This document shows, piece after piece, positions 2,119-7,509 of a DNA stretch of 64,000 nt. The DNA comes from Desulfovibrionaceae bacterium (GTDB lineage Bacteria; Desulfobacterota; Desulfovibrionia; Desulfovibrionales; Desulfovibrionaceae): NCBI GenBank assembly GCA_019421865.1, contig JAHZEL010000015.1, positions 32,892 to 96,891 on the forward strand, read 5' to 3'. The notes below the pieces were generated by a model. The model did no database searches. It worked only from the letters and a program-made list of their open reading frames with translations, and was not told where the DNA came from. Position 1 is the stretch's first letter. Each line of letters starts with the position of its first letter. The translations under genes were made by a program, and so were the position numbers.

Positions 2119-2372
2119 GAGAAATTCAGGCGGGAATTTTTTGCGGGAAATTTTATATCACAAACCTTTTTACTTTTCCAGTCATTAATAGGGAGATTCC
2201 CCGGGCGCCCGAACGCCACCCTTCCTTTCTCATCGTCAGGCCGGATTTTCCCTCTCTGCCTGCTTCCCCCTGAAATTTGAACTTGACTTCTTATCAAGAA
2301 TAATTATTATTTATTCGCCGTCGGGAGGAAGACTCCCGACAACTTAACGCCACTATCATCAGGAGAACCATC

Positions 2373-2759
2373 ATGCCTGCAAGATTTGAAGTATATCAGT
2401 GCAAACATTGCGGAAATATTGTTGAAGTGCTGCACGGCGGCGCTGCTCCCCTCGTCTGCTGCGGCGAGCCCATGAAGCTCCTGCGCGAAGGCTCCACCGA
2501 CGGCGCGAGCGAAAAGCACGTTCCCGTCATTGAAAAGACCGAAAACGGCTACAAGGTGAAGGTCGGCTCCGCCGCCCATCCCATGGCCGAAGACCATTAC
2601 ATCGAATGGATCGAACTGCTGGCCGACGGCGTTTCCCACATCGCCTTCCTCAACCCCGGCGATGCTCCCGAAGCTGAATTCTGCGTGAAGGCCGACAAGG
2701 TTACCGCCCGCGAATTCTGCAACAAGCACGGCCTGTGGAAGGCCGAATTCCAGGGCTAG
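2373..2759 (+). CDS. dfx: Desulfoferrodoxin (2Fe superoxide reductase)
   Basis: 128 aa. N-terminal desulforedoxin-type Cys cluster ([10 protein letters not shown]...LVCCGEPM) plus a C-terminal SOR domain ([14 protein letters not shown]). Confidence 0.95.
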
Positions 2760-2761
2760 TC

Positions 2762-3115
2762 ATGAAGAAGTACGTCTGCAACGTCTGCGGTTACGAATAC
2801 GATCCCGCCAAGGGTGATCCCGATTCCGGCATCGCTCCCGGCACCGCCTTTGAAGACATCCCCGAAGACTGGGTCTGCCCCGTCTGCGGCGCTTCCAAGG
2901 CCGACTTCGAGGCCGTTGAGGAAGAAGCCCCCAAGGGTGAAAGCGATATGGCCATGTGGCAGTGCCAGGTAGGCAACTGCGGCTATATCTACCGTCCGGA
3001 AAAGGGCGACCGCAAGGGCAAGATTCCCGCCGGAACCGCCTTCGAGGACCTGCCCGACGACTGGCACTGCCCCGTCTGCGGCGCAAGCAAAAAAATGTTC
3101 AAGAAGCTCGCCTAG
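2762..3115 (+). CDS. Two-domain rubredoxin: canonical rubredoxin fused to an Rdl-like (CX4C) rubredoxin domain
   Basis: 117 aa from ATG 2762. Domain 1 is CNVCGY...CPVCGA. A linker [13 protein letters not shown] follows. Domain 2 is [15 protein letters not shown]...CPVCGA. Confidence 0.85.
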
Positions 3116-3133
3116 CGGGCGGAGAGAAAACAC

Positions 3134-3319
3134 ATGGTCCACTGCAAGACTTCCGCGTCTTCCTGCTCCGAACAGATCATGCTCGGAACCGGAGTGAAAT
3201 TCGAACGCATACGCCGCATCACCGGCTATCTTGTAGGAACGCTCGACCGCTTCAACGACGGCAAGCGCGCGGAAGAACACGACCGGGTCAAACACTGCAA
3301 CATGGAAAACTGGCGCTGA
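3134..3319 (+). CDS. Stand-alone NrdD C-terminal glycyl-radical-domain-like small protein
   Basis: 61-aa ORF with SD GGAGAG about 7 nt upstream. Residues 24-54 (ERIRRITGYLVGTLDRFNDGKRAEEHDRVKH) resemble the extreme C-terminus of class III RNR NrdD (RRVCGYLG...FNAGKQEE..RRVKH, from memory). Confidence 0.6.
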   Translation: MVHCKTSASSCSEQIMLGTGVKFERIRRITGYLVGTLDRFNDGKRAEEHDRVKHCNMENWR

Positions 3320-3343
3320 GCCGCTTCCCAAGGAGACCATCTC

Positions 3344-3502
3344 ATGGAAAAGTACATCTGCAACGTCTGCGGTTACGAATATGATCCCGCCAAGGGCGAC
3401 CCCGATTCCGGCATCGCTCCCGGCACCGCCTTTGAAGACATCCCCGAAGACTGGGTCTGCCCCGTCTGCGGCGCTTCCAAGGCCGACTTTGAAGCCGCGT
3501 AA
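3344..3502 (+). CDS. rub: Rubredoxin (52 aa; below the ORF-track length cutoff)
   Basis: ATG 3344 to TAA 3500-3502 encodes [52 protein letters not shown], with SD AAGGAG upstream. Near-identical in nucleotide sequence to 2762-2920. Confidence 0.9.
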
Positions 3503-3579: not shown

Positions 3580-4788
3580 ATGAGACCTGTTGAACTGAAA
3601 AAGGACATCTACTGGGTCGGATCCGTCGACTTCGACATCCGCAACTTCCATCACTACAGCCGCTCTCCCGAGGGCAGCACCTACAACGCCTATCTCGTGT
3701 GCGACGAGAAGAAGGTGCTTTTCGATACCGTGAACGCCCACAGCTTCGACGAGCTGGTGAAGCACATTTCCGAAATCACCGATCCGGAAAGCATCGACTA
3801 CATCGTGTGCAACCATCTCGAACAGGATCATTCCGGCGCTCTTCCCCGCATCGTGAAGCTGTGCAAGCCCGAAAAGATCTTCTGCTCCCCCATGGGCTAC
3901 AAGTCCATGACCAACATTTATAATACCGAAGGATGGCCCATCGAGATCGTCAAGGACGGCGACCGCCTGAACATCGGCAAGCGCAACATCACCTTCCTTG
4001 AAACCCGCATGCTGCACTGGCCCGACAGCATGGTCTCCTACCTGGAAGAAGACCGCGTGCTCTTCAGCAACGACGCCTTCGGTCAGAACATCGCCAGCTC
4101 CTTCCGCTTCGCCGACGAGTGCGACCGCACCACGCTTTATGACTCCATGAAGCGCTACTACTACAACATCGTGCTGCCCTACTCTCCGCAGGTGCTCAAG
4201 ACTCTGAAGCGTGTGACCGATCTCGGCCTCGTCTTCGACGTCATCGCTCCCGACCACGGCCTCATCTTCCGCACGCCCGAAGACGTGAAGTTCGTCATCG
4301 ACTCCTATCAGGCCTTTGCCGAACAGAAGCCTCAGCTGCGTGCCGTGATCGCCTATGAAAGCATGTGGAACGGCACGGCCAAGATGGCCGAAGCCGTGGC
4401 CGACGGTCTGGAAGCCGAAAACGTGCCCTACGTGCTCGTGAACCTGCAGAACAGCCACTGCAGCGACGTGATGACCGAACTTGCTGACAGCGGCGCGCTC
4501 ATTCTCGGTTCCGCCACGCGCAACAACATGCCCATGGTGAACATGATGGCCTGCCTCGCTCATGTGAAGGGACTGCGTCCGCAGAACCTCGTGGGCGCCA
4601 CCTTCGGCACCTACGGCTGGTCCGGCGAAGCCCCCAAGATGATGGCCGACGCCCTTGCCGAAATGAAGGTCGAACTCGTGGGCGAACCGCTCAAGTGCTA
4701 TTTCAATCCCAAGAAGGAAGACCTTGAGAAGTGCCGCGAACTCGGCGCCGCCGTGGCCCGCACCCTCAAGGAAAAGTGCGGAGCCTAA
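3580..4788 (+). CDS. roo: Rubredoxin:oxygen oxidoreductase (class A flavodiiron protein)
   Basis: 402 aa from ATG 3580 (SD GAGGAA). MBL-like di-iron motif HLEQDHSG and a flavodoxin-like C-terminal half. Sits next to rubredoxin as in the known rbo-rub-roo arrangement. Confidence 0.9.
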   Translation: MRPVELKKDIYWVGSVDFDIRNFHHYSRSPEGSTYNAYLVCDEKKVLFDTVNAHSFDELVKHISEITDPESIDYIVCNHLEQDHSGALPRIVKLCKPEKIFCSPMGYKSMTNIYNTEGWPIEIVKDGDRLNIGKRNITFLETRMLHWPDSMVSYLEEDRVLFSNDAFGQNIASSFRFADECDRTTLYDSMKRYYYNIVLPYSPQVLKTLKRVTDLGLVFDVIAPDHGLIFRTPEDVKFVIDSYQAFAEQKPQLRAVIAYESMWNGTAKMAEAVADGLEAENVPYVLVNLQNSHCSDVMTELADSGALILGSATRNNMPMVNMMACLAHVKGLRPQNLVGATFGTYGWSGEAPKMMADALAEMKVELVGEPLKCYFNPKKEDLEKCRELGAAVARTLKEKCGA

Positions 4789-6231: not shown

Positions 6232-7251
6232 ATGGAAACGATCTGGTTCTTCCTCTGGACGCTTTTGTGGGCCGTGTACTTCATTCTCGACGGCTTCGAC
6301 CTCGGCATGGGCACCCTCATGCCCTTCGTGGCCTCCAACGACCATGAACGCCGCGTCATATACAACGCCCAGGGCCCCTACTGGGACGGCAACGAAGTAT
6401 GGCTCATCACGGCCGGCGGCGTGACCTTCGCCGCCTTCCCCAACGCCTATGCCGTCATGTTCAGCGCCCTGTACGCGCCCCTGCTCATCCTGCTCTTCTG
6501 CCTGATCTTCCGCGCCGTGGCCTTCGAGTTCCGCGGCAAGGGCGATTCCTGCACCTGGATCTTCAGCTGGGACGTATGCATGACCCTCGGCAGCTTCCTG
6601 CCCGCTCTTCTGCTCGGCGTGGCCTTCGCCAACCTCTTCATGGGCATCCCCATTGATGCGGACGGCGTGTACCACGGCAACATTCTGAAGCTCCTCAACC
6701 CCTACGGTCTCGCCGGCGGCGTGCTCTTCGTGATCATGTTCTGCTACCACGGCGCCCTCTGGCTGGAGCTGAAGTCCGAAGGCAACCTGCAGGCCAAGGC
6801 CTTCCGCGCCGCCCGTGCGCTCTGGCCCGTGCTGCTGTCCCTCGTGCTGCTCTTCCTCGCCCTGACCGCCCACTACACCGAAAGCTTCGAGCGCCTCGCC
6901 CAGCATCCCGCTGCCTACGCCGCGCTTGCTCTTGCCGTCATCGGTCTTGTGGCCAGCCGTCTCGCCATCTGCAGCAGCACGCTCGTCGCCTGGCTGTGCA
7001 GCGCCCTGTTCATTCTCGGCCTCACCTTCTTCGGCGTGTTCGGCATGTATCCCGGCATCATTCTTTCCAGCATTGATCCGGCCTACAGCATCACCGTGTT
7101 CAACGCCGCCTCCAGCCCCCTCACCCTGAAGATCATGCTCACCGTCACGCTCTGCGCCGTGCCCGTGGTTCTGCTCTATCAGGCCTGGGTTTACTGGACC
7201 TTCGCCCATAAGGTGACGAAGGAAGTGCTCAAGGACGAACACTCCTACTAA
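6232..7251 (+). CDS. cydB: Cytochrome bd-type quinol oxidase subunit II
   Basis: 339 aa. Its ATG directly abuts the cydA stop (TAAATG). Polytopic, with FILDGFDLG near the N-terminus. Confidence 0.92.
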   Translation: METIWFFLWTLLWAVYFILDGFDLGMGTLMPFVASNDHERRVIYNAQGPYWDGNEVWLITAGGVTFAAFPNAYAVMFSALYAPLLILLFCLIFRAVAFEFRGKGDSCTWIFSWDVCMTLGSFLPALLLGVAFANLFMGIPIDADGVYHGNILKLLNPYGLAGGVLFVIMFCYHGALWLELKSEGNLQAKAFRAARALWPVLLSLVLLFLALTAHYTESFERLAQHPAAYAALALAVIGLVASRLAICSSTLVAWLCSALFILGLTFFGVFGMYPGIILSSIDPAYSITVFNAASSPLTLKIMLTVTLCAVPVVLLYQAWVYWTFAHKVTKEVLKDEHSY

Positions 7252-7272: not shown

Positions 7273-7314
7273 AAGGCCTGCGCGAGGCAGAACGCCACGC
7301 GCAGGCCTTTTTTT
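7273..7314 (+). terminator. Rho-independent terminator after cydB
   Basis: 12-bp stem AAGGCCTGCGCG / CGCGCAGGCCTT followed by a T-run. Confidence 0.7.
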
Positions 7315-7509
7315 GCGTCTTGTTTCCTCCGCTTCCCGCCGCCAGCGCAACAGCTCCGCCTTCGGCATACGGCGGCAGACAAAGCCGGATCCGCCATAAA
7401 AAAATAAAGGAATCCGCACTCTCCCCGTTTCCGGCCTTGCCAAGTCGGAACAAAAGGTTATCGTATAAGGAAACAGCCCTTCCGGCACTCCATGCAAAAC
7501 GAGGACACC

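Follow-up and report, generated by a model that had tools for sequence, protein, structure and literature searches.

The window analyzed here, a stretch of 64,000 nucleotides, originates from a gut Mailhella (family Desulfovibrionaceae), whose genome (G000; 2.6 Mb, 98.5% complete) has Mailhella species as its nearest named relatives. It contains an oxygen-defense operon in the order dfx, double rubredoxin, small ORF, rubredoxin, roo, cydA, and cydB. The neighbors named for the small ORF in an earlier note on this DNA, namely dfx, rubredoxins, roo, and cydAB, were confirmed by Pfam matches and by the gene calls of relatives. The following features were assigned (positions within the window):

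2283..2310, plus strand: promoter-like site (TTGACT, 16 nt, TATTAT; 10/12 matches) upstream of dfx
2299..2311, no strand: perfect palindrome (6-1-6) AATAATTATTATT, covering the -10 hexamer; putative Fur-family-like operator
2373..2759, plus strand: desulfoferrodoxin (superoxide reductase), 128 aa; Pfam Desulfoferrod_N and Desulfoferrodox
2762..3115, plus strand: two-domain rubredoxin (Rd-Rd), ending in TAG and sharing its frame with the small ORF; Pfam Rubredoxin twice, 159.6 bits
3119..3124, plus strand: predicted Shine-Dalgarno sequence GGAGAG, 9 nt upstream of the ATG of the small ORF
3134..3319, plus strand: predicted stand-alone glycyl-radical protein of NrdD type, 61 aa, representing the small-subunit paralogue of the dfx operon; codon of G31 at 3224-3226
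3344..3502, plus strand: rubredoxin, 52 aa; 95% nucleotide identity to the first domain of Rd-Rd
3580..4788, plus strand: flavodiiron protein (rubredoxin:oxygen oxidoreductase type), about 402 aa; Pfam ODP, Lactamase_B, and Flavodoxin_1, relatives 402 aa
4909..6231, plus strand: cytochrome bd oxidase subunit I; ORF, and Pfam Cyt_bd_oxida_I in syntenic relatives
6232..7251, plus strand: cytochrome bd oxidase subunit II; ORF, and Pfam Cyt_bd_oxida_II in relatives
7299..7318, plus strand: terminator-like hairpin followed by a T-run, 3' of cydB

The promoter-like element in front of dfx was kept in four out of five Mailhella upstream regions, and comparable promoter- or terminator-like sites were not found in the intergenic gaps between dfx and cydB. 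The palindrome AATAATTATTATT may represent a Fur-family-type operator; it was kept in some Mailhella and was absent in the congener G058 and in the sister genera. Since no second exact copy of the site exists in the genome and its near matches fall into AT-rich islands, no regulon could be defined, and the attempt was dropped. The dfx-rub-roo genes of Desulfovibrio are largely constitutive, and operon membership of the small ORF is no proof of induction by O2.

Three rubredoxin units of 156 nt each are located at positions 2760-2915, 2952-3107, and 3342-3497 of the window. The 95%-identical repeats, represented by domain 1 of Rd-Rd and the single rubredoxin, bracket the second rubredoxin domain together with the small ORF, and their nucleotide identity points to a recent duplication or gene conversion. 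Rd-Rd and the small ORF share a reading frame and are separated by the TAG and 18 nt (positions 3113-3133), and the six-frame Pfam NRDD match extends past the TAG into the CPVCG knuckle of the rubredoxin. Read-through of this stop codon was considered and rejected: the two genes are in frame in four out of six lineages with a mixture of TAG and TAA stops, which is probably due to chance.

The window ORF (plus strand) encodes a protein of 61 aa (MVHCKTSASSCSEQIMLGTGVKFERIRRITGYLVGTLDRFNDGKRAEEHDRVKHCNMENWR) and is flanked by intergenic gaps of 18 nt on the 5' side and 24 nt on the 3' side. Its GC3 value of 0.73 falls into the range of its neighbors (0.72-0.88), compared to 0.58 for a long antisense ORF. 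The ORF is very short, and a non-functional remnant or a mis-called frame therefore had to be weighed. However, the Shine-Dalgarno sequence claimed for it was indeed present, its GC3 is neighbor-like, its profile score exceeds the curated cut-off, and its core does not vary across dozens of distinct orthologues. For the operon-copy orthologues, the 39-codon core featured dN/dS values of 0.05-0.24, with dS near saturation and RRITGY invariant, indicating that the ORF is under purifying selection and does not represent a decaying fragment. Moreover, a full nrdD was not found at this position in relatives, so that the pseudogene origin named in the earlier note as a possible refutation can hardly be upheld; we regard a remnant or mis-call as extremely unlikely.

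Assignment of the ORF to the anaerobic ribonucleotide reductase NrdD was based on profile and structure matches. The Pfam family NRDD (PF13597) matched with 33.5 bits (E 2.5e-8; curated cut-off 26.2 bits), residues 22-54 corresponding to profile positions 532-562 out of 562, and the extreme C-termini of three NCBIfam NrdD equivalog models matched with E-values between 1e-12 and 4e-9. The sole solved structure recovered was the NrdD of Prevotella copri (8P23, residues 707-740, E 1e-8), in the region holding the radical glycine loop. The segment RRITG31YLVGTLDRFNDGKRAEEHDRVKH aligns with these residues and is invariant among the orthologues, which is in agreement with the original proposal of a free NrdD-type glycyl-radical module resembling roughly the last 30 residues of NrdD. 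G31 in the R-x-x-G-Y loop is the candidate radical glycine. In contrast to PF13597, the profile PF01228 (Gly_radical) did not match the ORF even at E-values up to 1. Judged by its sequence, the protein belongs to the NrdD radical-domain family, and we consider it very probable that it functions as an NrdD-type radical protein acting in trans. Proteins of this kind with 61 aa are publicly annotated as "anaerobic ribonucleoside-triphosphate reductase".

Two features of a canonical NrdD radical domain are missing from this chain, namely the zinc knuckle and the covalent attachment to a barrel, the protein being stand-alone with 61 aa. The two cysteines reported to precede the loop (C4 and C11) are present, but a third one, C55, had been overlooked. 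Among the orthologues, C4 is mostly kept and C11 is not conserved; by sequence, C4/C11 are not the NrdD zinc site, which resides on the large subunit. Likewise, the statement that no NrdD barrel is encoded nearby holds for the window and its contig, but not for the genome, whose only RNR barrel is located on another contig (C21).

Four places in the genome were recovered with the NRDD profile. Contig C21 holds two of them, a gene of full size and, just downstream of this gene, a small frame; the others are the window ORF and another small frame, located on contig C19. Coordinates of the large nrdD and of the third small ORF are as follows:

G000 contig C21:146432-148720 (L005 6432-8720), minus strand: large nrdD
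G000 contig C19:24957-25127 (L006 5958-6128), plus strand: third small NrdD-type radical ORF, 56 aa, lacking the N-terminal HCK

The large NrdD comprises 762 aa with ATP-cone, barrel, MGCR finger loop, and the knuckle CGY...CPRCG, and matches 8P23 with 615 bits, ATP-cone and MGCR finger loop included. The sequence following the knuckle (RHDGEGIPLSVLKQIKGYIHDSRSSDERSEAPDRIANIKL) was aligned by HMMER with the canonical LQRITGYLVGTTDRWNSGKLAELHDRVTH of 8P23 and is diverged except for G-Y; accordingly, the large-subunit tail of 40 aa (LKQIKGYIHDSRSSDERSEAPDRIANIKL) can be aligned to the canonical tail, yet is diverged. A further ORF of 61 aa (MIHCKSDVAAATDQILVGTNVKFERIRRITGYLVGTLDRFNDGKAAEERDRVKHCSMDSWK) begins 11 nt past the nrdD stop codon. 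It is 70% identical to the window ORF and holds the canonical loop FERIRRITGYLVGTLDRFN.GK.AEE.DRVKH. Within the core (residues 17-55), the window ORF differs from this adjacent copy at four positions only (L17V, G20N, R45A, and H49R). Thus, the search for nrdD and nrdG and the comparison of C-termini, as suggested previously, uncovered both genes, a diverged nrdD tail, and a small gene directly downstream; it is the C21 paralogue that occupies the place behind nrdD, and not the window ORF, which resides on another contig within the dfx operon. The activase gene nrdG was detected 35 kb from nrdD (C21:182455-182889; TIGR02491, 139.2 bits, above cut-off). The catalytic domain of class I and II enzymes (PF02867) yielded no match in G000, while control genomes responded in the same search, and class III is therefore the only RNR detected.

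These results modify the initial idea of a GrcA-like rescue module for a full-length NrdD. The free radical module stands, but the reductase is already a two-piece enzyme, consisting of the 762-aa protein with diverged tail and the adjacent 61-aa gene product; hence, the window ORF would be a second copy of an exchangeable subunit rather than a stand-in for a resident domain. The pseudo radical-domain tail of the large NrdD (LKQIKGYIHD...IANIKL) is a conserved stretch of 40 aa featuring the length of a real domain, and might serve as a plug, a docking element, or a residual radical site. An inter-subunit zinc site, formed by three cysteines of the large knuckle together with C4/C55 of the small protein, was considered and dropped, because fused relatives of the clade also have three cysteines, and C55 is missing outside Mailhella-like lineages.

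Structure prediction was carried out for two constructs. For the G143 large and small pair joined via an in-frame TAA (P0121, 828 aa; unpaired alignment A4), AlphaFold2 reached a pTM of 0.72 with a moderate barrel, and residues 725-828, covering the tail and the small protein, obtained pLDDT values of 26-36 that hold no docking information. The own large subunit with 44 split-type homologues (A5) was modeled with a mean pLDDT of 66 (tail 45-54). The MAFFT alignments A1 and A2, which set the small proteins and fused tails on the large-subunit pseudo-tail, were excluded from folding.

The split arrangement is prevalent among relatives. Matches to the small protein were obtained in 29 out of 151 Desulfovibrionaceae genomes; in approximately 25 of these 29, a small frame of 56-150 aa is located directly behind the large nrdD, and in four the genes are fused. 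Among the nearest large homologues in the protein collection, the canonical loop is missing in 54 out of 120, and the remaining 66 are fused proteins whose C-terminus reads FERIRRITGYLVGTLDRFN.AK.AEE.DRVKH, nearly letter-identical to the core of the small ORFs. Large tails of the Desulfovibrionaceae form two groups, namely the Mailhella type with K-G-Y and a shorter type without any glycine (e.g., KEGEAVSQETLKMLRRKYPHMPNCCR); many large subunits of the family end Gly-less, as exemplified by LRRKYPHMPNCCR. Since the canonical, constrained domain is the small protein, while the large tail has drifted, an obligate two-subunit enzyme is favored over a resident domain supplemented by a spare.

Nevertheless, G739 and Y740 are conserved to at least 90% among 45 Mailhella-type large subunits, which keeps alive an explanation modeled on GrcA: the tail of the large NrdD (IKG739Y) would still work, and both small genes would replace it after cleavage by O2. 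A large subunit that retains the G-Y in its tail might hold the radical itself. In addition, the length of this tail equals that of a canonical radical domain, and the pattern basic-basic-aliphatic-x-G-Y-aliphatic is retained. Beyond G-Y, however, the tail is unlike the canonical one, whereas the small ORFs match fused NrdDs almost residue-for-residue. Other large tails of the Desulfovibrionaceae lack the glycine, yet the small gene is always there, and a resident domain that has to meet both NrdG and the barrel is not expected to diverge while its spare stays canonical. We consider a working resident tail unlikely and retain the two-subunit reading.

In Mailhella, the small protein occurs in two sequence types. 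The nrdD-adjacent type is represented by ...SDVAAATDQ...GKAAEERDRVKHCSMD.WK and the operon type by ...TSASSCSEQ...GKRAEEHDRVKHCNMENWR, with paralogue-specific peptides such as TSASSCSEQIMLGTGVK and HCNMENWR. The full order dfx, Rd-Rd, small ORF, Rd, roo, and cydAB was found in G000 (window), G143, G109, M. massiliensis contigs, and P0014 contigs, and a P0018 contig features the same order, visible from Rd-Rd onward. The arrangement thus covers at least six Mailhella lineages. In a small tree, the operon copies and the Mailhella adjacent copies form one group (support 88/95) that excludes the phage-side copy, and both types have the N-terminus M.HCK in common, indicating that the operon copy arose via duplication within the lineage. 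Sister genera possessing a split NrdD encode dfx, rd, roo, and cydAB with a single rubredoxin and without the small ORF; accordingly, insertion of the rubredoxin domain and the small gene is specific to Mailhella. C55 is absent from the operon copy of G109.

With regard to co-occurrence with dfx-rub-roo, the place of the ORF in the operon is conserved, and its presence tracks dependence on class III RNR. The genomes G000, G109, and G143 possess NrdD and the operon copy and have no PF02867 match; the congener G058 encodes a class I/II-type enzyme (PF02867), gave no NRDD match, and features a plain dfx-rd-roo-cydAB operon without the ORF. Such a phyletic pattern, observed in four genomes from a single genus, would be expected if the gene brings a benefit only to cells whose DNA synthesis relies on the oxygen-sensitive enzyme. 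In a phylum-wide scan, matches besides those of the own genome came from one other genus, likewise of the Desulfovibrionaceae, and no independent case of an oxygen-operon copy was found.

The evolutionary rate of the operon copy leaves room for a less specific interpretation. In the same genomes, its core dN ranges between 0.07 and 0.18, compared to 0-0.023 for the nrdD-adjacent copy, which might be as expected for an accessory copy. A redundant paralogue without oxygen-specific role, brought in by the rubredoxin duplication and enlarging the pool of small subunits, would agree with this faster evolution, with the location of the ORF between two rubredoxin repeats of 95% nucleotide identity, and with the lack of an operon copy in sister genera. 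On the other hand, bracketing direct repeats should favor deletion of the segment, yet it has been retained across the genus, in at least six lineages and with dN/dS well below 1, and the ORF is missing exactly where NrdD is missing. Mere redundancy is thus considered improbable.

The explanation we lean towards, with modest confidence, is that the ORF encodes a radical subunit that can be exchanged in a split class III RNR, is co-expressed with the oxygen defense, and re-arms NrdD after O2 damage. It is established that NrdG generates the glycyl radical, that this radical is transferred to the finger-loop cysteine, and that exposure of glycyl radical enzymes to O2 breaks the chain at the radical glycine. 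In the proposed mechanism, NrdG would install the radical on the small protein at G31, and this protein would dock in the NrdD barrel beside the finger-loop cysteine (MGCR). A cut by O2 in such a two-piece enzyme would lead to the loss of the 61-aa part only. The operon copy, presumably co-transcribed with dfx, the rubredoxins, roo, and cydAB, would provide fresh subunit whenever the oxygen defense is expressed, and NrdD could be re-armed with it after removal of O2. Re-arming would matter because the cell is without a class I or II fallback enzyme. It counts against a replacement part that the operon copy evolves faster than the adjacent one, and that sister genera whose NrdD is split in this way get by without a small gene in the operon.

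The operon context would also suit a regulator or decoy that, under oxygen stress, occupies NrdD or NrdG without catalysis, thereby shutting down the reductase or soaking up the activase for as long as the stress persists. Paralogue-specific residues (R45, H49, N56, and often C11) could be taken as signs of such a specialization. However, both the radical loop and the residues flanking it are canonical and do not vary, fused NrdDs of the active type likewise have R45, and the sequence bears no mark of inactivity. We attribute only a slim chance to a decoy, and the exchangeable subunit remains the preferred reading.

Autonomous glycyl radical cofactors serving as spare part for pyruvate formate-lyase are represented by GrcA/YfiD of E. 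coli and Y06I of phage T4 (PMC8683613, PMC13450708). Like GrcA/YfiD, the window ORF encodes a small protein consisting of little more than a free glycyl-radical domain, its setting is stress-linked (in this case by operon context), and phage-borne copies exist. GrcA presumably revives an enzyme after O2 has destroyed its radical domain; for the window ORF, operon position and phyletic pattern speak for such a role. However, GrcA is of the PFL type (PF01228), whereas the window ORF is of the NrdD type (PF13597 only), and GrcA comprises about 127 aa, compared to 61 aa. Furthermore, the target of GrcA keeps its own working domain, whereas that of the window ORF has a diverged tail and a sister small gene behind nrdD.

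With the single-chain NrdDs of P. copri (8P23), phage T4 (1H79), and E. coli, the protein shares the same loop and helix (RITGYLVGT.DR.N.GK.AE.HDRV.H), and the nrdG activase known from these systems is present in the genome of the window; unlike them, the loop resides on a separate polypeptide encoded in three genomic copies, one of them in the oxygen-defense operon and one by a phage endolysin. A split class II RNR has been described for Pseudomonas aeruginosa (NrdJa/NrdJb; PMC4520616; PMC9669993). Similar to the present case, an RNR C-terminal module is placed on a second polypeptide, but NrdJa/NrdJb is a class II enzyme dependent on adenosylcobalamin, without glycyl radical and with a large second piece, and no extra copies in stress operons or phages have been reported for it. 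Small polypeptides bound to a glycyl radical enzyme, as proposed here, are also represented by the beta and gamma subunits of benzylsuccinate synthase and by the gamma subunit of 4-hydroxyphenylacetate decarboxylase; these, however, carry no radical glycine, the radical being located on the large subunit.

A review from June 2026 states that, apart from formate lyases, no glycyl radical enzyme is known to have a spare-part protein, and that the existence of such proteins for other members is "yet to be determined" (PMC13450708). In publications dealing with the phylogeny of class III RNR and with C-terminal extensions, split class II enzymes are described and split class III enzymes are not, and in the literature combining NrdD with spare-part, GrcA, or YfiD, nothing was found on a stand-alone NrdD radical protein. 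The assumption that this protein had not been characterized thus agrees with the literature searched. If confirmed, this would be the first spare-part system beyond pyruvate formate-lyase among glycyl radical enzymes, and no other enzyme of this kind would be known to have its radical domain encoded, as a rule, by a gene of its own. The proposed function bears on the recovery of DNA synthesis after O2 exposure in strict anaerobes depending on class III RNR, and would add a repair step to the oxygen-tolerance model of gut sulfidogens. It would also change NrdD annotation, as 61-aa ORFs and large subunits with non-canonical tails now both carry the full enzyme name. The locus makes the spare-part question testable, with class III as sole RNR, a two-piece enzyme, and an extra radical piece in a well-understood oxygen-defense operon, and Mailhella massiliensis is a cultured relative with the same arrangement.

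Stand-alone copies were also detected in phage-type surroundings, and an exchangeable subunit, if true, would explain them. The copy on C19 directly follows a phage-type endolysin gene (phrog_315) in otherwise chromosomal surroundings (ribBA, methyltransferase), probably as the remnant of a prophage. Further copies in other Desulfovibrionaceae are located among genes for Mu Gam-like, head-closure, tape-measure, and endolysin proteins. P0111 (64 aa, 70% identical to the window ORF) lies in a phage block of a metagenome contig (L089 4009-5195), where it adjoins an Amidase_2 lysis gene upstream of capsid genes, with no large nrdD within 5 kb. In the GenBank phage collection, no stand-alone copies were found, the best matches being unverified faecal contigs; the one checked (H1) encodes a full fused NrdD among bacterial-looking genes. 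C. difficile phages encode a full nrdD-nrdG.

A library of representatives at 50% identity yielded 1,999 matching proteins (E ≤0.001); the best 150 of these 1,999 are all 51-120 aa long, and a few matches among the representatives are gene-call fragments (P0378). Two out of three sampled distant representatives are located in phage-like blocks, one by RusA and one by DUF4406, and the third belongs to a cluster in the order nrdD ... small ... HD - nrdG. A broader interpretation, for which we see a little less than an even chance, is that class III RNR is a two-component enzyme in many anaerobes, with the radical on a consumable subunit of 6-7 kDa, that the dfx-roo-cytochrome bd copy of Mailhella restocks this subunit with each O2 encounter, and that phage copies keep the host reductase armed while infection proceeds.

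A different gene arrangement was observed on the metagenome contig carrying P0260 (L092 301-5467). Here, a 472-aa DUF4379 protein and a 103-aa ORF lie between a 548-aa NrdD and a 73-aa radical-loop ORF, and genes for an HD protein and NrdG come next. This may represent a different route to a split nrdD, perhaps by insertion of a mobile element.
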